Program-made: the position numbers and the translations under genes | The notes under the pieces: model-generated | The model's input: only the letters and a program-made list of their open reading frames with translations | What the model was told of the DNA's origin: nothing | The model's database searches: none | Assembly: GCA_051294375.1 (NCBI GenBank) | Contig: JBJCIZ010000622.1 | Location: forward strand, 1 to 53,511 | DNA: 53,511 nucleotides | Reading direction: 5' to 3' | From: Paraspadella gotoi | Lineage: Eukaryota > Animalia > Chaetognatha | Shown here: piece after piece, positions 860 to 53,511 of the stretch | How the letters are laid out: each line of letters starts with the position of its first letter | Position numbering within the stretch: the first letter of the stretch is position 1

Positions 860-2243
860 GGATAGATAAATCGAAAATTGAATGTGTTCGTGTAGGGGTA
901 GGAAAGTATGTGATAAAGCTGGGATATTAAATTTTTGATGGAATCGTAGGAGTGGGAAAAGAGTTCAAATTACGAAAAACCAAAGGACATATTTTTTTTT
1001 GATTTTTTAAAGTTTCTTCTTCATCTTTCTATCTCTCTCTGAGTTGATTGAATTTGATATTTATTGTATTGACCAAATTATGACAATTGACAAAAATATG
1101 CCAGTTTGACCAAATTCTTTAAATTGACCCAAATTATGCCAGTTGACCAAATTTCTGCAAGTTGATCAAGTTCTGCAAGTTGACCAAAATTATGCCTGTT
1201 GACCAAATTATGCAGTTGACCAAATATAGGGCCAGTTGATAAAGTTATGCCAGATTGACCAAATAGCCGGTTGACCAAATTATCTTAATTGATAATCAAA
1301 TCTATGTCACCGTTGACCAAATTATGTTCATGTGACCCAAATTATGGTCAGCTAGACCAAAATTATGTCAGTTAACCAAATTCATGTCTTGTTAACCAAA
1401 TTATTCAGTTGACCAAAATTTTATTTCAGTTGACCCAATTATGTCAGTAGACCAAGTTCTTATGTCAGTTTAACCAAATTATGCAAGTTGAATTAAATTA
1501 TGCAAGTTGACCAAGTTAGCCTTATTACCACTTAATTATCGATTGACCTGGAATTTTGTATGTGAGTAGAAAGTGTGTGATTGAAACAGGATACCAAGTT
1601 TCGATGGAATCTTTTGAGTAAGAAATGAGTTTAAATGGAAAAAAACAAAAAACCTGTTTCACTAATGATTATGAATTCTTTTTCCTTATATATTAAATGT
1701 ATATGCAGGATGTATTAATAAATCAAATAATCAGTTATATTAAATTAATTAGTCAATTATTAATCAATAATTATATTGAATCAGCAATCAATCCGTCCAC
1801 CGTCCCACCTTAACAAAAAGCTCCAAAAAAACTCGTGATTGTGCTGGTTGGATTGAGAATGAATTTTGTTGCTGTGGTAGAGAAAGGTTGTGGGGTATAA
1901 AGGCTGCGTATATAAAGTTTCGACGGAATCTCGTGTAAGTGAAATGAGTTTAAAGTTGGGAAAAAACATAAGTCGCATTTACTAAAATATTTACTTATTT
2001 TTAACCAATTAAATACTCTAAATTAATCATTTTGGATGGATAGATTGAGTTCAAATTTTTTGTGGTGGTAGAAAATTGTTGTAACGATGCTTAATATAAA
2101 GTTTCGCGTGGAAACGTACGATGGAAATGAGTTTAAATAAAAAAAAATAATGATCACATTTATTTGAATCATTTTACTTATTTTAACCCATAATAGATTG
2201 AGATGAAATTTTGTGAGCGGGTAGGAAAGTGTGTGAAGAAGCT
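860..2243 (+). mobile_element. Internal part of a Helentron-associated (HINE/DINE-1-like) element, family A
   Basis: Repeated ~130-bp modules (aaattttgtgtgtgggtaggaaa...aagtttcgatggaatc...aatgagtttaaatggaaaaaa). 1540-2243 is colinear with 44030-44714. Confidence 0.75.
1066..1516 (+). repeat. Minisatellite, ~18-19-bp unit (ttgaccaaattatgc/ncag)
   Basis: About 20 or more degenerate tandem units. The same array occurs inverted at ~20968-21166. Confidence 0.9.
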
Positions 2244-5200
2244 CTTCCTCTTTTCTGTTCTCTTTCTTAGTAGTTTTATTCTTTCTTTTTTCTTTTTTCT
2301 TTTTTTTCTTTTTCTTATCAGTTCCCTTTTTCTCTCCCTTTAGCTTTTAGTATTTTTCTAGTCTAGCTTTCTTTCTCTCCTAGTTTCGTCTCTAGCTCCT
2401 ATTTATAGACCTTGGCCTTTCTTTCCTTTTTTTTAATTATTCTCATTTTCTTTTTCTTTTCTTTTCTTTTTTCTTTTTTCTGCTAGTTATTTTCTTCTTT
2501 TAGCTTTTATCTCTTCTTTACTTCTTTCTTGCTTTCTCTTTTCTCTTCTCTTCTTCTCTTTTTTTTCTTCTTCCTTTTAATTTAGTCTACTAGTCTCCTT
2601 TTTTTCTTTTAGCTTTTTTTCTCCTTTTCTTTAGTTCTTTTTTTCTTCTTTTTACCTCTTCTTATTCTTTTTTCTTTTTCTTCTTTTCTTTCTTAGTTAT
2701 TCTTTATTAAGCTTCTAGCTTCTTTTTCTCTTCTCTCTTTCCTTTTTTCTGTTAGGTTTAAGTCCTTCTTACTTAGGCTTTTTAGTTTCTTCTTCTATTT
2801 CTTTTTTCTTAGTAGTTTAGACTAGCTATAGTATATTCTCTTTAGCTCCTTAGTCTTTAGCTCTAGATTTTTCTTCTAGTTTTTATTCTTCTTTTCCTCT
2901 TCTTCCTTCTTCTTTAGCTCCTTCTCTTTTAGTTTTTTTTTCCTGGCTCTTTCTTCCTTTCTTGTCTTTAGTTAGCCTTCTCTTTCTTTCCTAGTTCCTC
3001 CTTTTTCTCTTTTTTCTATTTTTCTCTTAGCTCTTTTTTAGTCTCTTTCTCTTCTTCTCCTTCTCTAAGCTCTTTCTTTAGCTTGTTTCTTTCTCTTTCT
3101 AGCTTTTCCTTTCTCTCTATTTTCTTTTGTCTTAGTTTTTTCTAGCTTCTCCTTTTCTTTCTTTATGTTTTTTCTAGTTAGTTATAGCTTTTTTTTTCTT
3201 TTAGCTCTTCAGCTTCTTTAGCTCCTCTTCTTCTTTAGTTTCTTTCTTTTTAGTCTGCTTCTTTTTCTCTTCTCTTCCCTTTTTCCTCTTTTTTAGTTTT
3301 TATTCTTAGTCTAGCTCTCCCTTCTAGTTCTTTCTTCCTTTTACTTTTTTTTTTTTTACTCTTCTTTTCTAAGTTTTTATTTCTAATTTCTTCTTTTCTT
3401 AGTTCTAGGTCTTTTTTCTAGTTTTTCTTTTTTTCTTCTCTTCGGCCTTTCTTCTTTCTTATTTAGCTTTTTTAGTTTTTTATAGTTTTTTCTCTTTTCT
3501 TCTACTAGTCCTTAGTTATTTTCCTTAGCCTTTTTTCCCTTAGCTTTTTTGAGTTTTCTCCTTTTTTCCTTTTACCTTCTTCTTTCCTTAGTCCCTAGTT
3601 CTTTTAGGCTCTTTTCTCTTTCTTTTCTTCTTTTTCAGCCTAACTTTCCCTTTTCCCTTCTTTTCTTTCTTTTCTCTTTTCTTAGCTTCTTTTTCTTTAC
3701 CTTTCTTCTTTAGTTTTTCTCTTTTTCTCTAGAGTAGTTTTTCTTCTGTCTAGTTTCTTTTCTTTTCCTCTTTTTTTCTTTTTCTTCTTTCTTTTTTCTT
3801 CTCTCTTTTTTAGTTTAGTCTTTACTTAGTTAGCCTTTTAGTTTAGTCTCCTCTCCATTTCTTTTAGCTTCTAGATTTCTCTTCTCTTTCTTTTGTTTTC
3901 TCTCTTCTTTCTTTATCTTTTTTTTTCTTTTCTTTTCTTAGTCTTTTCTAGCTTCTTTTTCTAGACTCTTCCTTGTCTTTTTCTCTCTTTTTTTTTCTTC
4001 TTTTCCTTTCTTTTACTCTTATTCTTAGCCAGTTTTTCTTCTCTCTTTTTCTAGTTCTTCTCTTTCTATTAGGTTCTTTTGCTTTCTCATTAGTCCTAAG
4101 TTTTTCTCTTTTTTCTTTTTTTTTTAGCTCTCTTTCTTCCTTTTTTTCTCTGATTCTTTAGTTCCTTATTTTTAGTCTCTCTTTCTAGCTGCTTCTTTTT
4201 AGATTTTTTAGCTCTTTTTCTTCTTTTTTCTTCCTTACTAGCTAGATCCTTTTAGTTCTTTTTAGCTCTTCTTTTCTTAGTCTCTTTTCTAGATTCTTTG
4301 TTCCTTTTAATTTTTTCCTAGTTCTCCTAGTTTTAGCTAAGCTCTGTGTTAGTTCTGTTCTTTCTTTAGCCTCTCCTTTTTCTCTTTTCTTCCTCTCCTT
4401 TCTCTTCTTTTCTTTTTTTTTTCTTTTCCTCCTTTTAGTTTAGCTTTAGACTTCTTTTTTTTTTTTAGTTTCTATTTTTTTCTTTTTACCCTCTCAGCTT
4501 CTTAGTCTTTTTTTTCTTTTCTAGTCTCTCTTTCTAGCTTTAATAGAGCCTTCTTCCTTTTCTAGTATCTTTTTCTCTTCTTTTTTTCTTTACTCCTTTT
4601 TGTCTTCTCTCTTCATCCTTACCTTTTTTCTTATAGTTCTAGATTTTCTTTCTTTTTTTTTTTCTTTTTTTTTTCCTATTTAGACTTATCTTAGTTCTCT
4701 CTTTTTAGTAGCCTAGTCTTTCTCTCTAGTCTATTCTAGTTCTTCTCTTTTTCTCCGCTTAGTTTTCTTTTTTTTTTTCTTCTTTTTCTTTTTTAGTAGT
4801 TCCTCTCTTCTAGCTAGTCCTTAAGTTAAGGTTTATCAGTTCTTATTTTTTTTTTTTAGTTTAGTTTCTCTTTTTTTTATTCCTTTTTTTTTAAGTTCTT
4901 TTTTTCTCTATCTATTTTCTCTAGTTTTTGACTTTTCTTTTCCTTTAGTTTTTTCTTTTTTTTTAGCTTTAGTTCTTTTTTTTTTTTTTATTTATTTTTT
5001 TTTCTCTTCTTAGTTGTTTTCTTTTTATTAGAGTTTCTTCTTTCCTTCTTTTTCTTTTCTTCTAAGTCTAGTAGTAGTTTTTTCTACTCTCTCTCTTTTT
5101 AGTCTTTTTCTCTAGTTGCTTAGTTCTCTTTCCCTTTCTCTTTTTTCTTTTTTCTTTCTTTAGTTCTCCTAGCTCTTCTCGCTCTACGCATCTTTTTCTT

Positions 5201-8200
5201 TCTTAGCTTCTTAGTCTTTCTAGTATTCCTTTCTCTCTATTCTCTGCTAGTTCTCTTTTCTCTTTAAGTTCTAGTATTTTCTTCATTTTTTTAGTTTTAC
5301 TTTTTCCTCCTTAGTAGCTTTTGTCTTTCTTTCTTCTAGCTTTTAGAAGACTCCTCATCTTCTTTACTTCCCTTCCTTCTCTTTTAGCCTTCTTTTCTTT
5401 TTTGTTTCTAGCTCTCTTTCTTCTTCCTTTAGTTAGCTCTTTACTTCTTTTTTCTTTCTCATACTTTAAGCTTTTCTTTCCTAGTCATTCTTAGCTCCTT
5501 CCCTTGCATTTTTTCCTTTCTTTTTTATAGTAGCTTCTAGCTTCTAGTCTCTTTCTCTTTTTTTCGTCTTTGTAGCTCTTCTTGGCTTTTTTTTAGTCTT
5601 AGTTCTCCTCACTTTCTCTTCTTCTTTTTCTTTTTCCTCTCTCTTTTTCCTCTTTCTTTAGTTCTTCCTAGTTTTTTTTCTTTTAGTTAGTAGTTTTTAG
5701 TCTTTCGCTTATTCCTAGTTCTCTTTTTATTCTTCTCTCTTCCCTTAGTTATTCTTAGTTATCTTTAGTTCTTTTATTCTTCTTTCTTTAGCTTTTTTAG
5801 CTCTCTTCTAGTTCTTTTTCCTTTTCTTTAGTTTATTCTCTTTTTTCTCTAGTCTCTCTCTTCTTTTTAGCCTCTTTCTTTCTTTTTTACTTTCTTCTTT
5901 TTTTTCCTTCTTAGTTTAGCCTTTTTATTCTTACTGTCTTCTTTCTTCCTCTTTTTATAGACTCTTTTTTCTTTCTTTTTTTTCTTACTCTTAGCTTTTC
6001 CTCCTAGTCCTTTTTCTTTTAGTTCTTTCTTTAACTCTCTTTCTAGTTCTTTCTCCTTTTTTTTCTTGCTAGTTCTTCTTCTTTGTCTTGAGCTCTCTTT
6101 TTCTTCCTAGTTTCTCTTTAGTTTTCTCTCCTGCCTTTTCTTCTAGTTTTCCCTTTCCTCTCTATTTCTCCTTCTTTCTCTTTTCTAGTAGCTCTTCCTT
6201 TCTCTAGCCTTCTCTTAGCTTTTTCTTTCTAGTTCTTTAAGATTTCTTTTCTTTTAGTTTCTTTTTTCTCTTTCTAGTAGCTTTTCTTTTCTAGTCTGCT
6301 CTTTCTTCTTCTTGCTTTCTCCTTTCTTAGTTATTTAGTCTACTCTTTTTTTCTCCTCTCTTTCTCCTTTTTTTTTTCTTTATTTAGTTTTTTTCTTCTA
6401 GTCTTCCCTTTTTTTTTTTTCTTTTCTTCTCTCTTCTTCTTTCTTTTCTTTTTCGACCTCTTTTTTTTAGTCTTCTCTCTTCTTCTTCCTAGCTTCTTTC
6501 CTTTCTTAGTCTCTATTTTTTCTTTTTTCTAGTCTTCTTGGCTCTTCTAGTTTTTTAGCCTTTTTGTTTAGTTTAGCTTTTCTAGTTCCTAGTAGTTTCT
6601 TTTTTTTTCTAGTTCTTTTTAGTCTTTTTTCTTTTCTCTAGTAGCTTCTTTCTAGCTAGTTTCTTCATTTTTTTCTTTTCTTTTCTTAGTTCTCCTCTCT
6701 TCTTTAGTTTTTAGTCTCTTATTCTCTTTTCCTTCTTCTCTCTTTTTAGTAGGTCATCTATAGCTTCTTCCTTTTTTTTTTTTCTTCTTTCCTATTCTCT
6801 GCCTTTTCTTTTTTAGTCTTTCTAGTTTCTCTCTATGCTTCATCCCTGCCTTCTCTTTTAGCATTTAGGTTTCTATCCTTTTCCCTTTAGCTTTAAGGTT
6901 TCTTCTTTTTCTAGCTTTTTTAGTAGCTTTTTAGCTGCTTTGCTTTTTTCTTTTCTTTCTCTCCTTAGTTAGTTTCTCTAGTTTCTTTCTTCTTCCGTTT
7001 TTAGTTATCTTCTTCTTTGCTTCCTTAGCTCTCTTCGTTCTTTCTTTCCTTTAGTCTTCTTCTTGCTCTTTTCCTTCTTCTTCTCTCTTTTTTCTTTCTT
7101 TTCTTCTTTCTTCTTTTAGTTTTTTTTCTTTTTCTCTTATAGCCTTGCTACCTCTTTAAGTTGTTCCTTGCTTTTCTTTAGTTCTATCCTTTTTAGCCTT
7201 TAGTTTTTTTTAGTCTTTAGCTTTTTTCTTAGCTAGTTCTTTAGCTTAGTCTTAGTTAGTTTTTCTTTTTCCTCCTTTAGTCCTTTTTTCTTTCTATTTT
7301 TTCTTTCTTTTTCCTCCTAATCTTTCTCTTTTTCCTTTTTAGCTCGTCTAGTCTTTTTAGTTTCTTTTAGTTTTTAGCTCCTTATATAAGTCTTTTGCTC
7401 TTCTTCCTAGCTTTTTTACGCGTAGTTAGCTTTTTTTCTTTTTTTAGTTTTCTTCTATTCTTTCTTCTCTTTTTACCGTCCTCTTATCTTTTCTCTTTTC
7501 TATCTTCTTTGCTTTCTATTGCTTCTATAATTCTTCTTCTTCTTACTTCTTTTTAGCTTTAAGTTGTTTTCTAGTTTCTCTCCTTTTAGCTTTTCTCTAT
7601 TTTCTTTAAGTCTTCTTAGTCCCGTTTTCGCTTCTCTCTAAGTCTTTCTCTTTTTTAGTAGCCCTTTCCTTTTCTCTTCCTTTTCTTAGTTCCTTTTCAA
7701 CTCTTTCTACCTCTTTCTTTAGTTCTCTTTTTTTCTTGCTTTTTCTTCTGCTTTTTTAGCTCTTTTTTTCCTTTCTTTGCTTTTCTAGCTCCTAGTCCCT
7801 TTCTCTTTCTAGTTTCTTTAGCTTCTCTTTCTTTCTTCTCTTTTTTTTTCTTCTTAGCTCCCTTTTTCTCTTTCTCCCTTTTTCTTTTACTTTTTCTAGC
7901 CTTACTCTCTTCTCTTTAGTTACTTTTTTTCTTAGTTTCTTTTCTCTTTTTAAACCTTTCTTCCTTTTCTTTTCCTTTTCCTTCTTTCTTCTCTTCTCCT
8001 TTTTTCTCTTTCCTCTTTAGTATTTTATCTTTTTTTTACTCGAGTTTTAGTCTTTATCTTTTTACCTCTTTTAGATATGTCACTATATATAATTTCTTAG
8101 TTTTTTTTTTTTTTTTCCTAGCTTCTCCTTCTCTTTCTAGCTTTTTCTAGGCTTTTTTCTTATCTCTCTTTCTTCTCTCTTTTTCTGCTTTTACTTTTTT

Positions 8201-11200
8201 TTAGCTTTTAGCTTCCTTTCTGCTTTTCTTCTTAAGTCTTCTCTTCTCTTAGTAGTATTTAGTTATCTTATTTTTAGTCTTTCCTTTTTTCCTTTTCCTT
8301 TTTAGCTTTTTTCTAGCTCTTTCTCTTTATAGCTTTTTTCTTTTTTTTTTTAGTTAAGTTCCCCTTCCTCTTTCTTCTCCTCTTTTCCTCTCTCATTCTC
8401 TTTCTTTTTCTCTTTCTTTAGCTTTATCCTGGCTTTTCCTAGTCCTTCCTTCTTTCTTCTAGTTCCGGCTCTCTTTTAGTTTAGTCTTTTTTTTTTCCTT
8501 ACTAGTCTCTTTTCTTTAGCTCCTTTCTTTTTAGATTTCTCTCTTCTTTTTATTAAGTTAGCTTAGTCTCTTTCTTTTTGTTTCTTTCCTTTCTAGCTTT
8601 TCTCCTTTTTTTTCTTTCTCTTCTAGTTTTCTTCTTCTCTCTTTTTTCTTTTTCTCTTCTCTCTTCTCCTTCTTTTTCTCTTTTTAGTTCTTTTTAGTTT
8701 CTCTTCTTTCTCTCTATCTAGTAGCTTTTCCTTTTTCTCTTTAGTTTTTTCTCTTTCTCCTTTCTTTCCTTTCTCTCTCCTTTTTATTTATTCTAAGTTT
8801 AGATTCTTCTTTATTAGTCTTTTTTGTTTTATTTCTCTTCCTTCTAGAGCTTAACGTCTTTCTTCTTTACCTTTTTTCTTCTTTCTTCTCTCCTTCTCCT
8901 TTAGCTTTTTTTAGTTTTTCTTTCTTTTAGTAGTCCTTTAGTAGTTGTCTTTTAGCTTTCTAGTTTCTTTTTCCTTTCCTCTTTACTAAGTCCTCTTCTT
9001 TCTTTCTTTTTTTACTTAGTTCTTTTTTACTAGTTTCTCAGCTTTCTTTTTCTAGCTTTATTTCCTTTTAGCTTAGTCAGTCTTCTATTTTAGTTAGTCT
9101 TTTTCCTTAGTTTTTCTCTTTTCTTCGTCTCTCTTTTCTAGTTCTTAGTTTCCAAGATTCTTCTTTTTATCTAGTCTTCTCTTTTTCTCTCTTTCCTTTT
9201 TCTTTTTTAGTTCTTTTTCTTTCCATTAGTAGTCTTTCCTTTTTTTTTTTTTTCTGCTTAGTCTGTTAGTTTTTTTTTTCTAGCCTAGATCTTAGGCTAG
9301 TTTCCTCTCTTTTCTCTATTTTCTCTCCTTTTTTCACCTTTAGTCTTTTTTCTAGTGTCTTTATTCCTCTTCTCTTTTTTCTTTATCTTTTTTTTTTTAG
9401 TTTTTTTTTTAGCTTTTTATTCTTTCTTTGCTGCTAGTCTCCTAGCTAGCTTAGCTTTAGTCATTCTCTTAGTCTTTAGTCTTCCTCTACTTAGTTTCCT
9501 TCTTTCTTTCTCTTTTCATTTTTTATAGTTTCTCTTAAGACTCTTTAGCTCCCCTATCTTTTTTTTTTCTAGCTTTTTAGCTTCCATAGTCTTTTTCCTT
9601 CTCTAGTACCCTTTCCTTAGTTGCTTTTTTAGTGCTTTTCTCTCTTTTTTTCTTCCTTTTTGTTTTTTTTCGATTTCTTAGTCTATCTAGTCTTTCTCTT
9701 TTTCCCCTAGACTCTAGTTCATGTCTTCCTTTCTTCTCTTAAAGCCTTCTTTCCCTTTCTTAGTTTCTTCTTATTTTCTCTCTCTTTTTCCTTTTCTTCT
9801 TTAGTAGCCTCTTCTTTCTCTTCTCTAGCTTTTCTTTCTCTCTTTTTTTTTTCTAGTTTATGTTAGTTTCTCTTCTAGTAGCTTCCTTACTTTAGTAGTT
9901 AAGATAGCTTCTAGTTTTTCTCTTGCTTCCTAGCTGTTTTCTCTCTTCTTTACCTTTTTTTCTTCCTTTCTCTTTTTATTTTTTTCTTCTTCTCTTCCTT
10001 CTTCTCTTCTCTTCTCTTATCTAGCTTGTTTTTAGCTACTTTAGTTTCTTCTTTAATCTTTAGTCCTCTTTTCTTTCCTTTAAGTTTTTAGTTTCTTCTT
10101 CTTTCTCTCTTTCTCTATCTCTTTCCTTCTCTTTCTAGTCTCTACCTTTTCTCCTCGTTCTGCCTCTAGCTAGATCCTTTTTTTTTTTCTCTTCTCTTCC
10201 TAGCACTCTTCTTCTCTTTTCTTCTTTCTTTTAGTTTCTTTTTAAGTTTTTTCGTTCCTAGCCTAGCTCTTTCTTCTTCTTTAAGCCTAGCTTTCTTTTC
10301 TTTAGCTTTATTTTCTTTTTTTTGGCCTCTTTTACTTCTCGTTCTCTACCTCTCTCCTTTTTTACTTCTTTTTCTTTCTAGCTTTTTCTTTTCTTATCCT
10401 TATTATTTCTCTTTTCTTTTTTCCTCTTAGTTTTGTTTTTTCTTTTTCTTAGCCTCTTTTCTAGTTGTCTTAGCCTTTTTCTTTTCTTTTTTTTCCTATT
10501 TTCCTCTTACTTCTTAGTCTAGTTATTCGTCTCTCTCTTCTCTTCCTCTCGCTCTAGTTTTGTTAGCTCTTTTCTTCTTTAGTATAGCTTCTTAGTCTTT
10601 CTTATTCCCTTGCTCTGCTAGCTATTCCCTTTCTTCTCTCTCTTTTCTCCTTATCTCTCCTTTAGTTTTTCTCTCTTGCCTCTCCTTCTTAGCCTCTCCT
10701 TCTCCTTTTTCCTCTAGTTTTTTCCTTTCTTTGTTTCTCCTTCTAGCCTTTTTTTTTTCTCTCCTTTTTTTCTCTTTTTTCTTCTCCCTTTTCTTTTCCC
10801 TCCTCTTTTCTCTAGCCTTTCTCTTATTTTCCTTTAGTTCTCTTATAGTCTAGTTAGTTCTTTTTTCTTTCTATCTCCTTTTTTGTGCTTTCTACCTGCT
10901 TTTTCTTTAGTCTTTACCTTCCTCTCTTTATTTTGCTCTCTTTAGTTCTTAGTTTCCCTTCTTTTCTCCTTCCTCTAGTCCTCCTTCTCTTCCTATTATT
11001 CTTTAGTTTTAGTTTTTTTCTTTCTAGTCCTTTCTCCTCTCTCTTTTTTCCGCTTCTCTTTTTTTTTACGTCTCTCTGTAGTAAAGCTTTCTAAGCTAGT
11101 TCTAGATAGAGCTTTTCTTTTTTCTTTTTTCTTCTCTTTTCTCTCTTTTTCTTATTCCTTCCTTTTAGCCTAGTTTTTTTTAGTTTTAGTTTACTTTCTG

Positions 11201-12284
11201 GCTCCTCTCTCTGCTCTCTCTAGCTCCTCTGTCTCCTCTTAGCTACTCTTCTAGCTCTTCTTCTTTTTAGTTTTAGCTTTCTTTCTCTCTTTGCTTCTCT
11301 CTTCCTTAGTTCATTAGCTAGTTTTCTCTTCTCTTTCTCTCTTCTACTTTGTCTTTAAGCTCTTTAGAAAAAGCTTTAGGTTTAGTTTTCTCTTTAGTCT
11401 ATTCCCTTAGTCCTATACATCCTTTAAGTTAGTTTTCCTCTAGATTTTTTTTCCTTTCTTTTTTTTCTACCTCTCCTAGTTTCTTTCTTCCCTTTCTTGC
11501 TTTCTCTTTTTTTTTTCTTCTCTAGTGCTCTATTCTCTCTTCCTTCTCTATCTTTTGTTCCTAGTCTCTTCTTCTTTCCTAGCTCTTAGCCTTTTTTCTA
11601 GTAGCTTCTTAGTCCCTCTTTCTTCTTTTATCTAGTTTAGTTCTTTTTCTTCTTTTCCTTCCTTTTTCTCTATTTCTCTTTCTTCTAGTCTCTCCTTTTT
11701 TTCTTCTCTTTCTCTCTTTCTTTCTTCTCTTTCTCTCTCTTCTCTCTTCCTTCTAAGGTATGGCCTTCTTTAGCCTTTTTTAGCCTTACCTTTTCTTCTT
11801 TTTCCTCTTTAGTCTTTTCTTTTTCTTTCTCTCTTTCTCTTTTTTCCGTTTTTAGTTTCTTTAGCTTGCTTCTTCTCTGTAGCTCCTCTTCCTTCTCCTT
11901 TAGTCTCTTATCTTACTCTTTTCTCTTTTTCGCCTCTCTCCTGCTGCTCTTTCTCTTCTCTTTTTTCTTTTTAGCTTTTATCCTTAGCTCTCCTTTTCCT
12001 TTCCTTTCTCTTTTTCTTTGCTCTTTTTCATTTAGTCTAGTCATTCTAGTAGTTCTTCTTTTTTATTATTCTTCCTTCTTTAGCTTTCTCTTAGTCTAGC
12101 TCCTCTCTCTCTAGTTCTTCCTTTTAAGTTTTAGTTTTTAGTAAGCTTTTTTTGTTCCTTTAGTAGTCTTTTCTCTTCCTAGTCTTTTCTTTATCTTTCT
12201 TTTTCTCCTAGTTTTTTCCTCTTTTCTCTTCTTTTCTTTTCTTTAGTAGATTTTTAGCTCTTTTCTAGCTCTTTTCTTCCTTTT
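2244..12284. repeat. ~10-kb aperiodic polypyrimidine low-complexity block (T/C punctuated by TAG/AGCT)
   Basis: Almost only T and C with frequent tag/agct words and no period. Its flanks rejoin to the uninterrupted repeat seen at 44704-44748 (gtgaagaggct|agatataaagttttgacgg). Confidence 0.9.
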
Positions 12285-14295: not shown

Positions 14296-14697
14296 GAAAA
14301 AACATTAATAAAATGCTCTACACATTAAGTTAGAGAGAGAGAGTGAGAGAGATTGAGGGAGAGTTTCTAACAAAGTGCTGAGTAAAGGACAGTGGCCAGA
14401 TTAGAGGACAGGTGAAGGTAAGAACAGAGAAGAAGATAATTTTGAAATGATAGAGAGAGAGAGAGAGAAATAATTACATTTGACAATGTATAACAAAGAT
14501 AAATTTGGAAAAACTTAGAAATAAGCTGTGATTTTGAATTAATAACAAAAGTTAAATAAGTAGTAATGAAAATTGAAATGGAGGAATAGGTGGTGAGAAG
14601 GTAAGAATTTAGTGAAATATATATAAGAGAAGAAAGAGCTCAAAAATAAGCTGCCCCCCCCCCCGGGCGGATAAAGGTGGGACGCAAACAACCTTTC

Positions 14698-14990
14698 ACA
14701 GCAGCATACGTGAGTGAGACTGGGAAGTCTCTCTCAGATTGGTTCAAACAGCACATAAAGCCGTATCGTGACACACGAGGTCACTTCTTATTGGCTATTG
14801 CTGAGCATTCGGCATCTTCTGGCTATCTGTTTAGAGAGTCCGACTGCCTCGTGTTGTCCCATGACCAAAATTGGTTCTCAAGAGGTATTAGAGGGGCTGT
14901 CTACATCAAAGCCCTCAAACCCTCTTTGAACCCTGATGGAGGACGATTCGATCTCCCTCCAAGCTATGATTCGCTAATCAAACTGGTGGC
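14698..14990 (+). pseudogene. GIY-YIG endonuclease domain remnant of a Penelope-like element
   Basis: AYVSETGKSLSDWFKQH...AIAEH...LVLSHDQNWFSRGIRGAVYIKALKPSLNPDGG matches the PLE pattern YIGETxRxLxxRxxEH...SAIAEH...WxxRxIxEAIYI...PSLNRDxG, with substitutions at key residues (G>S, R>W, E>G). Confidence 0.85.
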
Positions 14991-15507
14991 GGAAGACCCA
15001 ATGCTACCCCAACCGCACGGTAATTCCCCTGTCCCAAATCAACAGGTCAGGTGGAGGCCTCCCGGCAAGCAATGGACGTCCGATACCTCTCCCAAACCTG
15101 TAGCAACTTGGCGTGACTCTCTGAATGCCAGGCTCCGCTTAAAACGACGGCTACAGGAGGAGGGAGAGTAGTCTGTATCTGCTGCACTGAAACAGGCAAC
15201 CGCCCACCTAACCGTCAGGTGAGAGGAGGGCCTTCGGCAGGCTTATTAGGCCAAAGAGATATTAGAGTGGCACTTGGTGTTTTCCCAGGCGGGTCTATAC
15301 CTGACCCCATGATATCCCACTCTACAAGAATATTATCTCAGACTATGACAAGCCAATGACCCGATCACATCATCAGCGTCCCACCTTTGTCCGCCCGGGG
15401 GGGGCCAGCTCATTTTTGAGATCTTTCTTCTCTTATATATATTTCACTAAACTCTTACCTTATCTATCCATCACCACCTAGATTAGATTTGATTTTTAAC
15501 AAATGAG

Positions 15508-20810: not shown

Positions 20811-20967
20811 TCCTTCCTATCTCTCTCTCCTTCTCCACTCTCTCTTTCTCCCTCTCTCTCTATCTCTTTTCTTTTTTCATCTTTCATTAAAATAAAATAT
20901 AAAAATTAAAAAAAAATTTTTACTTCAATTAATCAATCAATGAACCAATAGCTGCACCAATACCAAC

Positions 20968-21350
20968 CTGCATAATTTGGTCAATTGCATAGTTTTGTCA
21001 ACTGGCATAAATTGGTCAACTGGCATAAATTGGTCAATTTGATTAATTTGGTCAACTCATAATTTGGTCTAATTACTGTCATAATTTGGTCAACTTGCAT
21101 AATTTAGTCAACTTGTATAATTTGGACAACTTGGATAATTTGGTCAACTTGCATAATTTGGTCAACAATCAACTTAACAATTAGCTAATTAATAATGTTA
21201 TCTGTGAAAAATAGAAAGAAAGAAAAAGAGAGAAAGAGTGAGAAAATTTTTTTAATAAAATTCAAGTAAATATGACTTTTATTTTTTCCATTAAAACTCA
21301 CTTTTACTTGTACACTTTTCTACCCACACACAAAATTTTATTTTAATAAA
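20968..21350 (-). mobile_element. HINE family A internal fragment with 18-19-bp minisatellite
   Basis: Same order of module, CT tract and ttgaccaaattatg array as 860-1516, but inverted. Confidence 0.65.
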
Positions 21351-23809: not shown

Positions 23810-24585
23810 TAATGATTTAGTATTAAGCATATAAATTTTTTTTATTTTGACAAAGAATAAAAAAATATTTAGTATTAAGCAATTCGTGGTTGGATTTATA
23901 AGTATAATTTTATTAATTTTTTGCCAATATTTTGATTCTTATGAACTAATCATTTTTGAAGGCGATCTCGGTTGTTTGATGCCCTTTTTATTATCGAATT
24001 CGTATTTTTGTTGCTTACAAAGTATCTGATTGATCAAGTATTTTAAAAGTCGCTCTCTGATTGGTTAGTCCTTATGATTGTACCTTAACCAAAGATATAA
24101 AAGAGATGTGCTTACCGAAAACTAAGAGGATAAGTTACCAGTGATTCGTGACAGTCGGTAAGCATTTAAAATGATATTTTGTAATTTTATGGTTAAACTT
24201 AAAGTTGACTATTTTTAATAAGTTCTTTTTTTTTTTGTATATCTTTAGAAATAGTCTCCCTTCGACTTGCTTTATGTCTCCCTTCTACTTGCTTCACGTC
24301 TCACGCTCATGTTATGTCTACTACAATAAATATTACTAAATTTACATTCTTCGAATCTCTATAAATAAATAGCAAGTCAGAAAACACTAGCTCGCTCACG
24401 GCGTTACGGTAAAATTCTCAATAGCCTTGAAAAATGATTCGTTCATAAGAACCAAAATATTAGCATGAAAGTAATAAAAATGAACTTGTAAATTCCACTA
24501 AGAATTGCATAATACTAATATTTTTTATTCCTTATCAAAACAAAAAATATTTTATAATTTTACATTGCTGTATTATTTATCATAT
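23810..24585. mobile_element. Fold-back element with ~150-bp inverted arms around a ~455-bp core
   Basis: 23810-23966 and 24421-24585 are inverted. The core 23967-24420 recurs alone at 45279-45709. Confidence 0.65.
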
Positions 24586-24643
24586 TTAAGCTTGATATGA
24601 GATACTCAAGTTTTGAATAAGAGTCGTCTTACTTCTAAAACCC

Positions 24644-24870
24644 TATGGTGGACTAAAATCCACCAACCGTTCATCAGCCGGCCATTGGTGCCGGAGGCAA
24701 GTCATTCGCTCTCCCAACCCAAAGGTCCGGGGTTCTAAGCCCGGTGGTCGTCTGGGCAGTTAAGAGGGACGGGGTGCTTAACACGCCTGTAACATGGTGT
24801 TACAGCCTGATCCGAAGCTCAGGGACTGCTTATATTGAACGGGTTCTATCACTAACACATAATAATAATT
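24644..24870 (+). mobile_element. tRNA-derived SINE-like element with twister ribozyme, copy 1
   Basis: 5' hairpin tggtgga/tccacca, A-box-like TGGTGCCGGAGG, B-box-like GGTTCTAAGCC within a T-arm (ccggg/cccgg), twister fold, then a (TAA)n tail. Confidence 0.75.
24756..24829 (+). ncRNA. Twister ribozyme, type P5 permutation
   Basis: P5 GCAGUU/GACUGC; GA-CGG; U^AA at 24779/24780; GCC; P3 UGUAAC/GUUACA; P4 CCUGA/UCAGG; L4 UCCGAAGC; pseudoknots CCG:CGG and GC:GC. P2 is weakened in this copy. Confidence 0.75.
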
Positions 24871-25065
24871 ACTGTCTCTTCATTGTGAGCCCGACTTCCG
24901 AACACAACAGCAACAACAACACTTTCAGGCGACATGCCTCAACCTGCGATGCACTTTCCGCCCACAACACATCAGGCGACATGCCTCAACTTGGTGACGA
25001 ACTTTCCACAACCAACAATTCACTGAAGAGACGCAACAGACTTCTCCCTACGGGAGGGCGGGATG

Positions 25066-25290
25066 TATGGTGGACTAAAATCCACCAACCGTTCATCAGC
25101 GGCCAATTGGTGCCGGAGGCAAGTCATTCACCTCCCAACCCAAAGGTCCGGGGTTCTAGCCCGGTGGTCGTCTGGCAGTTAAGAGGGACGGGGCGCTTAA
25201 CCCGCCTGTAACATGGTGTTAACAGGCCTGATCCGAAGCTCAGGGACTTCTTATATTGAACGGTTCTATCACTAACACAAAATAATAATT
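25066..25290 (+). mobile_element. tRNA-derived SINE-like element with twister ribozyme, copy 2
   Basis: Near-identical direct repeat of 24644-24870. Confidence 0.75.
25175..25250 (+). ncRNA. Twister ribozyme, type P5 permutation
   Basis: Same fold as 24756-24829; U^AA at 25198/25199; P2 CCC with G(A)GG; small insertions in P3. Confidence 0.72.
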
Positions 25291-25497
25291 TATAAAGTTA
25301 AATGAAACTAAATAGAAAAAAATAATAAAGTTTATACAGCTTATTAAAACTTAGCTTATATTCTTATCAGATTTTACATTTACCATTTACCATTACAACT
25401 TTTAATTTATGTGATAATCCTTTCTTTTTTGTTGTAAATGATTTAGAGAAAAAAACAAAGTTTTTATTAGTTTTCAATGAAATTTGTTTTTATTGGT

Positions 25498-31958: not shown

Positions 31959-32262
31959 CGTTGATTTCATGCCTGACATCGACAGGTTTGACAATGAAGG
32001 AGGGGAAAGAGTCAGTAAATTCTACGAAGTCTTCGACGAAGGAATAAGAATCGTTGCATTGTTATCAAATCTCTGCAACCGTAACTCAGATTTTCAAAAA
32101 ACTTTCAAAATATGATCAGAACCATATTTAATGGAAATTAGATACACAGTCGGTAGGTCAAGTATGCTCAAAAGGATAGTAATAAAAATCGAGTGACTCG
32201 AATATGCAAATGAGATTAATGCGTCATCGTAAGGTTGAATATAAGGCAAAAAAGAGCATAAT

Positions 32263-32517
32263 GTAGTGGTAGTATTTCATATCACACTACTCGTCCGAGA
32301 ATCAGCAGCACCTATGGCGCTGGAGGTAGCACGAACTCCTCCCAACCCAAAGGACTCGGGTTCGCGCCCTGCTGATTCACACAAGTAAAAGCGGGACGGG
32401 GCGTTTAACCCACCTGTAGTGTCGGACTACAACCCGATCCGAAGTTCGGGACCTTGTGTGCAACGGACGGTAAACTGCTCGCGGCATTGTCTACCACAAT
32501 AAATATTTTAATAATAA
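32263..32517 (+). mobile_element. Divergent tRNA-derived SINE-like element with twister ribozyme, copy 3
   Basis: 5' hairpin gtagtg/cactac, A-box-like TGGCGCTGGAGG, shared ctcccaacccaaagg, B-box-like GGTTCGCGCCC, twister fold, AT-rich tail. Confidence 0.72.
32378..32460 (+). ncRNA. Twister ribozyme, type P5 permutation
   Basis: P5 CACACAAG/CUUGUGUG; GA-CGG; U^AA at 32406/32407; ACC; P3 UGUAGU/ACUACA; P4 CCCGA/UCGGG; L4 UCCGAAGU. Confidence 0.78.
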
Positions 32518-32759: not shown

Positions 32760-33325
32760 ATACAATTGAAACATTCTTTGAATCATTATACCACTTCATT
32801 ATCATCATTATTGATATGAAATAAAATTCTCATTAAGAGGGAAGCCAGGTACTCTGGGAGTGAATAAACGAGACTGTGAGAGAGTCTTGATTGAAAGCTT
32901 GCAGGGACCTACTATGTCATTATCTTGTAGGAGTGATGGAGGCCTCAAACCACCAAAGCCTGTCCAAAGTCAGGGGCAAGATAGTTTATTTATTAAATGA
33001 ATGGATAATTTTATATTGGTTATAACAATTTCATAAAATTCAGCTCCTTGTATTTTAATGCTGAGTAGAGTATAATTTAGTTTTCCCCAATCTATTACTT
33101 AAGGGAGTGGTCTTTTCATACAATTGAAACATTCTTTGAAACATTATACCACTTCATTGATAGGTAAACCAGGTACTCTGGGAGTGAATAAACGAGACAT
33201 GTCATTATCTTGTCAGAGTGATGGAGGCCTTAAACCACCAAAGCCTGTTCAAAGTCAGGGGAAAGAAAGCTTATTTATTAAATTAATGGATAATTTTTAT
33301 ATTGGTTGTACCAATTTCATATTAT
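32760..33325 (+). repeat. Tandem pair of a ~330-360-bp repeat unit
   Basis: Units at 32760-33035 and 33045-33325; other copies at 37232-37553, and inverted partials at 33554-33629 and 41068-41161. Confidence 0.85.
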
Positions 33326-37231: not shown

Positions 37232-37553
37232 ATCCTTGTATTTTGATGCTAGTGCGGAGTACAATAAGTATTCCCCGATCTAATACTTAAGGGAGTGGTC
37301 TTTTCAAATTTCATACAATTGAAACATTCTTTGAAATATTTTCCACTTCATTGATAGGGAAGCCAGGTACTCTGAGAGTGAATAAACGAGACTGTGAGAG
37401 AGTCTTGATTGAAAGCTTGTAGGGACCTGCTATGTCATTATCTTGTAAGAGTGATGGAGGCCTTAAACCACCAAAGCCTGTCCAAAGTCAGGGGCAAGAT
37501 AGCTTATTTATTAAATGAATGGATAATTTTATATTGGTTGTACCAATTTCATA
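37232..37553 (+). repeat. Copy of the 32760-33325 repeat unit
   Basis: Shared ttaagggagtggtcttttc...gggaagccaggtactctg...ccaaagtcaggggcaagatag. Confidence 0.85.
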
Positions 37554-40432: not shown

Positions 40433-42731
40433 TTACTGTTCTGTGCATAAAAAAAATTCACTGTTCAATATTATTATATTTCTTTTTATTTTTTGAAATG
40501 TTATAGTTTCATATGTTGATATGCAAAATATCAATGCAAAATCTTTTTTTTGTTTTTTAGATATGACTGAATATATGGTGAAAGATGATAAATTTCTTTA
40601 AAAAGTTACTTATTCATATTTATTCATAGATTTGTATTAGATGAAAATAAAAAAAATTAATAGTACCAATAGTTAGTGTTATGTCTCAAATAGATAGAAA
40701 AAAAACCTCATTTAAAAATTTGATCGGTTAGTGGGGTAACTATGGCTTACCAATAGCATCCTCCACGCCGCTCCAAGGGAAAAAAAGAAAATTTGGAATG
40801 CACGTTACAGAAAGGGTACAGATAATGAACTTACTGACATGATAACCATGACCTTTTATATCTTATGAAATGGAGGCAGTAAAGAAATCTAAAAAAGTCG
40901 ATCATTAAGTCAGTCAATGAACCCTTTCCAATGGGCTATTACAAGAAATATATTTTCTTAATTTAAATGGATGATAAATAATAGAATTAAATTCCTTGCT
41001 ATATTTAAAAAAATTATCAACACAATTTAACATAATGATGTCGTGCTTTATCAAATATGTTGCCAGCTATGAAATTGGTACAACCAATATAAAAATTATC
41101 CATTCATTTAATAAATAAGCTATCTTGCCCCTGACTTTGGACAGGCTTTGGTGGTTTAAGGTAAATTTTTTAAAACTTTATTATGATAAACAAGCAGTCT
41201 GTCAAGCTTTTTCTTTGCAGTTAAAGATAATAAAAAATGACAATTTTTTTTCACAGACAAGAAGGTAGACATTCAGGCTGTTTATATCAAGCGATAAACA
41301 TTTTTGTATTTATCATTTTTGATATTTAAAAAAACATTTTATCAATCTACAACATAAATTTTTGTTTGTTTTTTACTTTAACTGAAAAATATAAGCAATT
41401 TTATAGAATAAAAAAAATTTAATAGTAATCAAAATGTAATTCAGTCTTTTATTTTTCAAATTACAAAAGAAAAATAAAAGATTTTACATGCCTTCATTGA
41501 AATTTTTAAAGCAAAAAACTGTTATACTTTTAACTCTGATTTAAACAAAAGCTGCGTAAAGATTTATGGATTTAATTTAAAGGAAAAACGAAATTTTTTC
41601 GCGCTTTAACAACATTTATTTTTTTATGTAATGGACAAGTTTTGACTCTAGTTTTCGAGTCTTTTCGTTTTTCCTTTAATCTATTTCAAACAACAAACGA
41701 AAGGATTATCACAAAGGATTTAATTTAATAAAACTTTTTTAGAAAGGTGTCCCATGATTAGGGCTTTAATTTGATACCACACCCACCTTGCTCCCTCTTT
41801 TCTTTCAAAAGTTATTTAAAAAAATATTTTTTAAATGACGCTGTACAAATCTTTGTTAAATAAAAATTTCGGCAAAGCAGGAGTATCTCACTTATTTCTA
41901 TTGGTACAATACTTAAATTTCAAAATAAAAAAAATTTTTCGTTATTTAGATACATATCACTTTCAGATATACCCATCGTATAACAATTTATTTATTTATT
42001 TCCCCCAACAAAGCCTAATTAGAAAAGTTGAGATTTTTTAAAATTGTTGAAAAAAAAGTTTGTCTAACCTATGCTCATTGAGAATAATGGTTTTGAATTT
42101 TTTTTCCTAACTCAAAATCCATTATTCTCAAATTTCAAAATATTTTTTTTCAAAATCATACAATAAATTTTTTTTAATTAATTTAAAAGGTTTTTATGAT
42201 GTTGTTTTTGTTTGAAAGAATTGAAAAAAAGTGAAAAATACAATAATTATATAAGGTTTTTGAAAATACCCCTAAAATATTAGATAATTAGACACAAGGG
42301 GAGTAAGCAGAGAAAACTTCCCATTCATAAAAAAAATTAAAAATGAATTTGTCATATTGTTATTTAGATTAATTGACTAATTACAAGCTAATGCTTCATA
42401 TAAATTGAAGAAATGATGGGTAAAAAATATTCATCTTGGTCTCGGTTAACTATTAAGTTATCATTAAAGTTTTGTTTTAATAATATTAATATTCTTTTTA
42501 TATTTATAAAGGCAATAGTCTAAAATTTTGTAAGCGTTTCGAGCTATATTGCTTTATATTTTTTACTATTTTTGATCTAGTTAGCTTTTTTGTTGATGGT
42601 CAAGGGCTATGGTCAGTAGTGTATATCGCAAATATTACCAAAAATAACAATTAATTAATTTGGCTCAGAAACAATTTTAAAGGGACAAAATCAGCACGAG
42701 ACCGTTTAGCCACGTTATTTTTCATTATGTC
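40433..42731 (+). repeat. ~2.2-kb dispersed repeat, copy 2, with two small insertions
   Basis: Colinear with 28673-30903; insertions at 41068-41161 and 41581-41715. Confidence 0.9.
41581..41715 (+). mobile_element. 135-bp mini Penelope-type insertion with 13-bp TSD
   Basis: TSD ggatttaatttaa (41568-41580 and 41716-41728); empty site at 29746-29758; short inverted arms; tail gaaaggattatcaca shared with 25410-25424 (reverse complement). Confidence 0.75.
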
Positions 42732-51505: not shown

Positions 51506-53284
51506 CAAATTATCATTTTTACTCGAGTTACAGAGCTTGCCGTCTCAGAAATTCTAGACGGATGCTACTGTATTTACTTTATCTTTAATATTCGTTTAGT
51601 TTTTGTCTTCTTTTTTTTCTTTTCCTTTTTTCTTCTTTCTAAATTTTTCTTTTCTTTCTTCTTCTTTTTAATTTTCAATCTTCTTTTTTTTTTTCCGCCA
51701 TTTTTCTTTTCTTCGCTTCTTCAATGATGTCACATGCTCTTGTTTATCCACCCTTTGGGAACTTTACGCCCTCTCTAAGCCGAGTAGTCCGCCGTTCCCC
51801 GCACCCTTGCCACCCCACGCCCGCCCGCCCTCCTTTTCCGCGCCAGTGGGCCCCCGTCGCGTCGAGACGTTTCCCATCGCAGATCAAAGCGTTGATACCA
51901 TCCTCTTGATTCGAATCCTGAGAGAGAGAGAGAGAGAGAGATTTTTTACTGTCGGTGCTTTCTGTCAACAGGGCCAATTATTCTGTCACTCCTCTCTCCT
52001 TTCTTTTTTTTTTAAACGACAAAACTTTAGTTTGATCTGAGTTGGAATCCCTTTTTTGGGAGGCGAAAGTAAACACGGCAACTGTAGTATCTGCTTTCGT
52101 AAATTTTGGTCGAATTTGAATGCTCGATGGATCGTTAATATAAAAACAGTATTTCACCCTCCAATAATTCTCGTTGACTTATTTGTCATTGATCTGATTT
52201 GTCATTGTCATCATGGGTCAGCATTGGTCTGCTTCGAGCCAAGTTGCCGCGAGTACATAATTACATATGTTCCGTACACGTCATTTATTAAGCGTTCCGT
52301 TAAAAGTAATTAAAAAACGAATATTTATTAAAAAAATATTGTATGTCCATTTATTTTACTTAGTCCGTAAAAACAGCTGAACACATACTACCACATACAT
52401 TAAGAATTGAAAGTGTAAGACAATACATAGAGATATTAAGAGAGAGAGAGAGAGAGAGAGAAGAGAGAAGAGAGAGAAAGCGTGAGAGAGAAAAATACTT
52501 AATATTATTCATTAACATAATCTTTAGTTAGAGATACAATTTTAATGCCACCGCTTGCCGGTCGTGTTACGCTCGAGCAAGTCATTACGAAAAATGGCCT
52601 GGCCATTTACACTTCTCGTCGTGAGAGTGATCAGCATATTCGTCTTCTTATCGTTTTCACGGTCATCTTTACATCTTCACTGGACATGTGGAACAACAGC
52701 AATATTTTTATGTTTTTTATTCTTTACCAATCGCCGCCTTGAGTGCTAGACATTATTCAATGGCGAGGATCAGACTGGAATCAATGTTGGATTTCATACT
52801 CATTGTCGTCATCATCGTCAGAGTCAGAGTCAACCTCATACGGAGACGTTCAATAGGAACCCAGATGATTAACGACCGCCTGACTGACCTCTTTTTTTGA
52901 TGTATTCATTACCGTCGTTAATCTAAATCCAGTTACACTTATCTCTGTGAATGCAATCAAACTGATCTGAGTTATTTGATCGATCGTTGTCAACGTTGTC
53001 GTCCATTTTGTACTTTTATTGAAATTCGTCGTTTTAGTTGTCGCCGGCAAGTCGTCGTCGAGAATGACGTCGTTCGTCTGTTAATGACATCGTAATTGCG
53101 TCGTTGCGTCGAAACGTAAACGAAGTTGTAAAGGACTAAAACCTCAGAATTATATAAGTCATAACACGAAGCAATCAGTTTTTTTCTCACCGAGGACTAC
53201 TTCTAAAAACATCTCAACTTCAAAGTGCGGATTGTAGTCGGGCATTGCAAAGTTCACCCCGCCTCTAAGCATGACACCTTTAGT

Positions 53285-53511
53285 CGTGACCCAGTGGCTC
53301 ATGGAGTAAAGCCATCAGCTCATGACCACTAGGTGTGGATAAGGCGCTAAGTGGGCTGAAGATGACTATCCTGTAACTTCTATAACCCCCTAGCAGCTAT
53401 GGACGGTCCTGGCTTGGAACCAAGGCTTGAGGGTTTTTCCACGCCCCAAGGCGGCTTACGGCCGTCCCTCACACTTCCCGCAGAGTAGGTACCGGTTGGG
53501 ATCGAACCCGG
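53285..53511 (-). mobile_element. tRNA-derived SINE-like element (head cut by the window edge) with twister-like motif
   Basis: Minus strand B box GGTTCGATCCC, then GAGGGACGG..UAA-GCC-GCC, P3 UUGGGG/CCUCAA and GCCUUGG-UUCCAAGC-CAGG. Confidence 0.5.

Follow-up and report, generated by a model that had tools for sequence, protein, structure and literature searches.

A gene-less LTR retrotransposon of Paraspadella gotoi with a tRNA-like module and a predicted twister ribozyme in each LTR

Results

A short non-coding element bounded by direct repeats

The window (the whole stretch of DNA analysed, 53,511 nucleotides of contig JBJCIZ010000622.1, assembly GCA_051294375.1) is AT-rich and repeat-rich. 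Within it, 24644–24882 is one LTR of a gene-less LTR retrotransposon of ∼650 bp. The element as present is 647 bp long and non-coding, and comprises an LTR, a tRNA-Trp-type PBS, a 183-bp interior, a polypurine tract (PPT) and a second LTR (Table 1); a Pfam search of 115 window frames gave nothing above cut-off. The second LTR repeats the first in direct orientation 422 bp downstream, with 217 identities, five mismatches and eight gap positions (93.9%, or ∼94%, identity). A sequence-only reading of this DNA had described the unit as a SINE, a description that gives way before the direct repeat, the PBS-like and PPT-like motifs between its copies, and the TG...CA ends and 4-bp target-site duplication (TSD) of a sister family.

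The window was compared with public contigs of the same organism (16,861, 3,068, 1,033 and 2 contigs from runs X1, X4, X9 and X10, respectively); summed contig depth is not copy number and serves here only as the basis for calling a sequence high-copy. Contigs leave the repeat for unrelated sequence ahead of 25066, which corresponds to 24644 (107, 86 and 21 contigs in X1, X4 and X9), and again after 24882 (130, 90, 39 and 1 contigs in X1, X4, X9 and X10). Because of these run-off points the LTR is taken to be a unit of 239 bp that ends in CA, 12 nt past a (TAA)n run. That run had been read as the tail of a unit headed by the tRNA-like sequence, yet copies extend beyond it, to 24882, and begin at 24644, outside the tRNA-like head and 35 nt upstream of its stem.

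The PBS-like motif of the window copy is one base short. The extra base, at 24884, is found in 38%, 51% and 53% of summed contig depth in X1, X4 and X9, and the form that carries it agrees with 13 of 14 positions at the start of Helenus-2_SyJa-I and with 12 of 13 bases of a tRNA-Trp 3′ end, that of the honey bee rather than the host's tRNA. At the other end of the interior, the PPT-like motif resembles the purine tracts that close Helenus interiors in the supplement of Kojima 2024, as far as its sequences were available (PMC10886601). The U5 end (24874–24885) is complementary at 11 of 12 positions to a late part of the interior (25021–25032), and a direct repeat of 22 nt lies within the interior (24925–24946 and 24972–24993, spacing 47 nt).

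Table 1. Positions of the element, its parts and related copies in the window.
Feature	Position	Strand	Basis
5′ LTR, family A, 239 bp, TA...CA ends	24644–24882	+	contig run-off points
U3 hairpin, 7 bp, upstream of tRNA-like part	24646–24665	+	fold
Enclosing helix H1 around tRNA-like head and twister (24667–24673 with 24836–24842)	24667–24842	+	7–9 bp in three of three LTRs, sequence differs in solo LTR
tRNA-like head: acceptor-like stem, A-box-like 24686–24697, T-arm and B-box-like 24731–24740	24679–24750	+	sequence, fold
Type-P5 twister variant, catalytic-position G24768, predicted cut 24779/24780	24753–24832	+	descriptor, pairing, copies
Self-complementary P1 linker, 6 nt	24773–24778	+	21 of 21 self-pairs over seven copies, G-U allowed
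PBS-like motif, tRNA-Trp type, one base short in this copy	24883–24896	+	contig depth, motif comparison
Internal region, 183 bp, non-coding, itself high-copy	24883–25065	+	contig depth; overlapping frame without Pfam match
Polypurine-tract-like motif, 2 nt ahead of 3′ LTR	25052–25063	+	sequence inspection
3′ LTR, family A, final 12 bp absent	25066–25290	+	alignment to 5′ LTR
TSD ATAA (32258–61 and 32499–502) around solo LTR	32258–32502	+	sequence, empty-site contig
Solo LTR, family B, 237 bp, TG...CA, tRNA-like head and twister	32262–32498	+	loose contig ends at 32262 and 32498
Twister in solo LTR, G32395, predicted cut 32406/32407	32378–32460	+	descriptor match, fold
Family C twister variant without P3 (also 32931–32974 and 33216–33259); no B-box-like motif upstream	37449–37492	+	covariance model
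Family D: T-arm/B-box-like motif at window edge, then same twister variant; 5′ end beyond window	53408–53511	−	covariance model

The TSD of the family A copy is unreadable because its 3′ LTR lacks the last 12 bp. A solo LTR of a sister family, B, supplies this feature: one X1 contig omits exactly 241 bases, with four letters that fit either side, as in an empty site with a 4-bp duplication. The case for an LTR element rests on both families jointly, since family A alone shows the PBS and PPT, whereas the TSD comes from a single locus of family B. We conclude that the order LTR–PBS–interior–PPT–LTR, the architecture of a TRIM, is very probably the correct reading of the family A element.

The tRNA-like head and its surroundings

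The same reading had noticed a tRNA-like head of Pol III type, and the motifs are where such a head would have them: A- and B-box-like sequences begin at 24686 and 24731 within an acceptor-like stem that starts at 24679. ARAGORN, run on the window, did not call this head as a tRNA. All three LTRs (the two of family A and the solo LTR) carry a GGTTC B box and a degenerate A box 44–45 nt apart, and this arrangement suggests that the head is likely to be a Pol III promoter. P5 of the twister, the acceptor-like stem and the enclosing helix H1 retain 7–10 bp despite different sequences among the three LTRs. A T4 run is absent from 24676–25290; of 529 window tiles of that length only four are T4-free, but this is a weak signal, as 601 of 2000 shuffles of one unit are also T4-free.

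A type-P5 twister variant behind the tRNA-like head

All the elements that had been listed for a type-P5 twister were located, in the order proposed. P5 is formed by 24753–24761 with 24824–24832, and in the 5′ LTR G24768 is followed by A24769; T1 joins 24770–72 with 24812–14 and T2 joins 24785–86 with 24817–18, while P3 spans 24787–24805 and P4 24806–24823. U24779 and A24780 occupy the cut-dinucleotide position, in agreement with the cut foreseen there. The 3′ LTR twister has its G at 25187 and a predicted cut at 25198/25199; it carries two small insertions, and one pair of its P5 is mismatched. A P5-twister descriptor, built from twister features with helix sequences left free, matched twice in the window (at 24768 and 32395), whereas neither 150 block-shuffled windows nor two LTRs shuffled 3000 times each gave a match. 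Its two insertions kept the 3′ LTR copy from matching. The minimum free energy structure of the solo LTR gives P5, P3 and P4 unprompted (z = −2.91).

An Rfam match had been named as a check on the twister, and none was obtained: at gathering score the whole window returned no twister and no family of any kind, hammerhead included, and at E ≤ 10 there was no twister match in 24500–25400, 32262–32498 or 53200–53511. P2 is present as the sequence-only reading had it, but with only three pairs and a 1-nt bulge, where the consensus has four, in each of the seven copies described below; 20 of the 21 pairs are intact, the mismatch being at 24783 in the 5′ LTR copy. According to a suggestion cited in a review, a P2 of altered length may perturb the active site; the review also records that P1 is dispensable in other twisters (PMC5408937). 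The top pair of P4 is A-U in both family A and family B, and T2 contains an A-U pair in families B and C. In the rice twister Osa-1-4, the double mutants G13A/C31U, G23A/C32U and C27G/G47C have relative activities of 0.89, 0.85 and 0.86 (PMC5113685 supplement, by column count), so that each of the three non-consensus pairs of the window twisters is tolerated in that ribozyme. Mutation of the conserved G, put forward earlier as a negative control, would be a weak one: G45A keeps ∼0.4–0.6 relative activity with neutral second mutations in a 2-h assay (PMC5113685).

On the strength of these pairings, the twister is predicted to be active as a ribozyme, and we think this probable. A 9-bp pairing of a U5 segment with the catalytic strand, considered as an 'anti-ribozyme switch', was dropped, its predicted probability being at most 0.05. 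A family-specific pattern had no matches in viral contigs; its 19 matches in metagenome contigs are ascribed to chance, all 19 being devoid of the twister helices.

Conservation of the fold in four repeat families

A covariance model that omits the pseudoknot pairs, run on the window, detected four additional copies, belonging to two other families (family C at 32931, 33216 and 37449; family D at 53408–53470 on the minus strand). T1 and T2 were intact in these at 20 of 20 positions, though unscored by the model. Over the resulting seven copies in four families, 82 of 84 T1, T2, P2 and P4 pairs hold: T1 and T2 in all 35 cases, with compensatory changes, and P4, capped by an L4 loop of the form U-NNN-A-A-G-Y, in 27 of 28. 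GA precedes T1 in every copy, and UAA is found in six, with CAA in the seventh. The first T1 pair is C-G, U-A or G-C and the first P2 pair C-G, A-U or G-U, while the bulged base of P2 is A, C or U.

Compensatory changes occur in T1, T2, P2, P3, P4 and P5 across the four families, with the GA, AA and L4 positions invariant. Where window copies are broken (24783, 25249 and 32432), most contig depth carries the pairing base. Of the covariation that had been proposed as a check, the seven copies show compensatory changes; the three LTRs alone make a thin test: 63 of 66 cells pair, with four two-sided changes (one in T2, two in P3 and one in P4), a result equalled in 6 of 500 shuffles.

Family C, a repeat of ∼320 bp on the plus strand (32760–33036, 33045–33321 and 37233–37553), has a perfect palindromic linker; neither a tRNA head nor a TSD was found for it. 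A 94-bp 3′ fragment of this family (41068–41161, minus strand) lies inside another repeat and starts 4 nt before the predicted cut, which might be expected from insertion of a cleaved RNA. Elsewhere in the window, the frame 14650–15171 (+) resembles the C-terminal GIY-YIG region of a Penelope-like element, a cluster lead with no Pfam match. Its stretch 14650–15168 resembles two eukaryotic clusters, one of them mostly arthropod among its nine members of known phylum, the other with GIY-YIG in 11% of its members, and a homologue search with the GIY-YIG-like fragment gave none at E ≤ 0.001. Family C may be a Penelope/Naiad-derived element and the source of the ribozyme of the TRIM. The window also contains ∼10 kb of pyrimidine-rich low-complexity DNA with strong strand skew (2000–12250; AT skew ∼−0.7), and two arrays of one 18–19-bp tandem unit in opposite orientation (1068–1518, plus strand; 20964–21166, minus strand).

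A palindromic linker in place of P1

What had been called a tiny P1 does not stand as a normal hairpin, because its 2 bp would close a 2-nt loop; a 6-nt self-complementary segment is nevertheless present there. The linker sequences differ among the four families, and the central pair is among those that hold in all copies. Since the linker is self-complementary, two copies could pair into a P1 of 6 bp and so make up a strand-swapped double twister, and the palindrome hints at a ribozyme of this two-copy kind. For two LTRs in one transcript the swapped arrangement is fully nested, and a hand-built swapped structure comes to −92.4 kcal/mol as compared with −84.6 kcal/mol unswapped; in the predicted ensemble of the two-LTR transcript, the linker–linker duplex has a probability of 0.0. 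Two-strand folding favoured dimers for all seven cores, by 7–13 kcal/mol, with the full swapped form only in two family C cores, and this preference is not counted as support because it is generic for hairpin-rich RNA. Hammerheads that require dimers are known in animal retrozymes (PMC7229834), and a review of RNA dimers makes no mention of twister (PMC7357161). That the double twister is obligate we consider doubtful on these models.

Discussion

A proposed route through a circular RNA

We propose that the family A element is a mini LTR retrotransposon of Helenus type, with a tRNA-like module and a P5-permuted twister in each LTR, that acts as a retrozyme: both predicted ribozymes would free a unit-length RNA, and once this is circularised a helper, likely a Gypsy element, would reverse-transcribe it. 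We put the probability of this reading at about 0.6. Pol III would start near 24679 and read through both LTRs, the read-through being suggested because 24676–25290 has no T4 run. The twisters would then cut at 24779/24780 and 25198/25199, so that the 5′ tRNA-like head would be discarded and the released monomer of 419 nt would carry the promoter of the 3′ LTR. The ends of this monomer would pair through P5 and H1 and be joined by a host ligase of RtcB type. A host tRNA of Trp type would prime reverse transcription around the circle, two LTRs being rebuilt without a terminal R repeat, and Gypsy integrase would insert the product with a 4-bp duplication.

In the predicted ensemble of the natural two-LTR transcript, the ends of the future monomer are paired with probabilities of 0.81 (P5) and 0.83 (H1). 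In this decayed copy, 55% of the 419-nt monomer is predicted to be paired, and its folding does not exceed that of shuffled sequences (z = −0.87, with 20 of 100 shuffles as good); retrozymes described in PMC4918200 are more than 70% paired. Double cleavage and circular RNA have a precedent in plant LTR retrozymes (PMC4918200), and ligation by RtcB in animal retrozymes (PMC7229834), and we lean towards the predicted double cut with its circle. More speculatively, the palindromic P1 linkers of the two LTRs would pair into a strand-swapped double twister, so that a transcript with both LTRs would favour cutting and the completed circle would disfavour it.

Other readings of the element

The element could instead move as an ordinary strand-transfer LTR retrotransposon with a linear RNA. 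Cleavage would then be confined to the twister of the 3′ LTR, which would stand in for the T-run that ends transcription in other Helenus families, and the 5′ twister would stay misfolded because U3 is not transcribed there. The T4-free stretch 24676–25290 is in keeping with this, whereas many of the published Helenus LTRs at hand have a T-run just past the tRNA-like part, and the probability of P5 in the 5′ LTR is 0.74–0.83 with U3 as compared with 0.08–0.27 without it. The solo LTR of family B, however, folds P5 at 0.76–0.87 with or without U3; a complete twister would moreover need to remain uncut in the genomic RNA, and plant LTR retrozymes, as described in PMC4918200, cut at both LTRs. 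We therefore judge a linear RNA to be unlikely, though it is the rival that we take most seriously.

Less probable still, in our view, is a tRNA-headed SINE, or a non-LTR element mobilised by Penelope, with two copies brought side by side by tandem insertion. The TG...CA ends, 4-bp TSD and empty site of family B argue against it, as do the high-copy interior with its PBS-like start and PPT-like end, the fixed 5′ end upstream of the tRNA-like stem and the fixed CA 3′ end past the (TAA)n run. A Pol III head joined to a ribozyme is nevertheless known from Schistosoma SINEs (PMC6765202), direct repeats are also formed by Penelope-like elements (PMC8557442), family C has the same twister with neither tRNA head nor TSD found, and a GIY-YIG-like fragment may lie in this very window. 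It is similarly improbable that the TRIM picked up its twister fold from another element as an inactive passenger and moves without using it. The short bulged P2, the missing P1 hairpin and the failure to match Rfam would suit a passenger; the compensatory changes in six helices over four families, the invariant GA, AA and L4 positions, the intact pairs in most contig depth and the dispensability of P1 in other twisters would not.

The retrozyme reading can be carried further, to a first animal LTR retrozyme that is also the first based on a twister: a Pol III TRIM with a strand-swapped double twister, in which double cleavage and circularisation would be confined to full-length transcripts, with solo LTRs and completed circles left uncut, and whose Rfam-invisible twister variant would be common to several unrelated retroelement families of the genome. 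Taken as a whole, this extended version is tentative and we think it rather less likely than otherwise. If the element is a retrozyme at all, it would be a counter-example to the description of animal retrozymes as elements without LTR, PBS and PPT, with a different ribozyme class; it would suggest that circular intermediates driven by ribozymes arose more than once in LTR parasites, and would give twister a short natural role. A single 53-kb window holds this variant in four repeat families and Rfam misses it there, so the number of such ribozymes in animal repeats is probably underestimated.

Comparison with known systems

The element joins features of Pol III TRIMs (Cassandra, Helenus), of ribozyme-bearing LTRs (plant retrozymes) and of twisters in retroelements (RTE LINEs). 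The combination of a tRNA-like module with a twister, flagged as possibly new by the sequence-only reading, was not found described in the literature consulted; LTRs bearing a tRNA-like part, on the other hand, have already been published as Helenus (PMC10886601). Among the matches listed in the openly accessible literature, none described a twister within an LTR or a TRIM, and none an LTR retrozyme from an animal.

Helenus elements (TRIMp3; Kojima 2024, PMC10886601) are TRIMs with tRNA-like LTRs, a PBS and a PPT, which in animals have 4-bp TSDs and a Gypsy-type PBS, and the group is thought to have several origins. They show a close likeness to the families described here, in the length of less than 1 kb, the tRNA-like A/B-box module in each LTR, the PBS, the PPT, the 4-bp TSD, the solo LTRs and the TG/TA...CA ends; TA...CA ends are seen in four wasp Helenus LTRs, one of them with its 3′ end unseen, and a Trp-type PBS in Helenus-2_SyJa. 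The 4-bp TSD and the Trp-type PBS also point to an invertebrate animal as the likely host. In the present element, by contrast, a twister fold follows the tRNA-like part and no T-run stands behind it, whereas in the supplementary Helenus LTRs that could be compared the tRNA-like part is mostly near the 3′ end, often before a T-run. The word 'twister' does not occur in Kojima 2024, and 'ribozyme' occurs only in a reference title. No twister was seen by eye in the Helenus consensus sequences inspected, and a search of the whole supplement for six motifs, in which line breaks can hide matches, gave no match to the L4 loop of family A.

Plant LTR retrozymes (Cervera et al. 2016, PMC4918200) resemble the element in being non-coding, with a ribozyme motif in each LTR, a PBS, a PPT, a 4-bp TSD and presumed mobilisation by Gypsy. 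From what that paper describes, they differ in having type III hammerheads, a tRNA-Met PBS and RNAs of 600–1000 nt, and in belonging to plants; here the ribozyme is a predicted twister, a tRNA-like Pol III module is present, the predicted monomer is 419 nt and the host is an animal. Animal retrozymes, in the passages of three sources that deal with them, are described as lacking LTR, PBS and PPT (PMC7761336; PMC7229834; bioRxiv 10.64898/2026.07.22.740005). The Schistosoma hammerhead SINEs (PMC6765202) share the Pol III head with a ribozyme but, as reported there, are non-LTR elements with a hammerhead.

With type-P5 twisters, as the review presents them (PMC5408937), the fold shares the U/A cut site, the catalytic-position GA, T1, T2, P3, P4, the L4 loop and termini in P5. 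It differs in the bulged three-pair P2, in the 6-nt palindromic linker that replaces P1, in lying below Rfam detection, and in two base pairs: families A and B have A-U where the top pair of P4 is nearly always G-C, and families B and C have an A-U in T2. Twisters of retroelements have been described for RTE LINEs (PMC8501958), and the T-variant twisters of Perere-3 are like the present ones in belonging to a retroelement; they differ in that Perere-3 is a non-LTR element, with the twister at the 5′ end of an RTE LINE and P1 provided by the target site.
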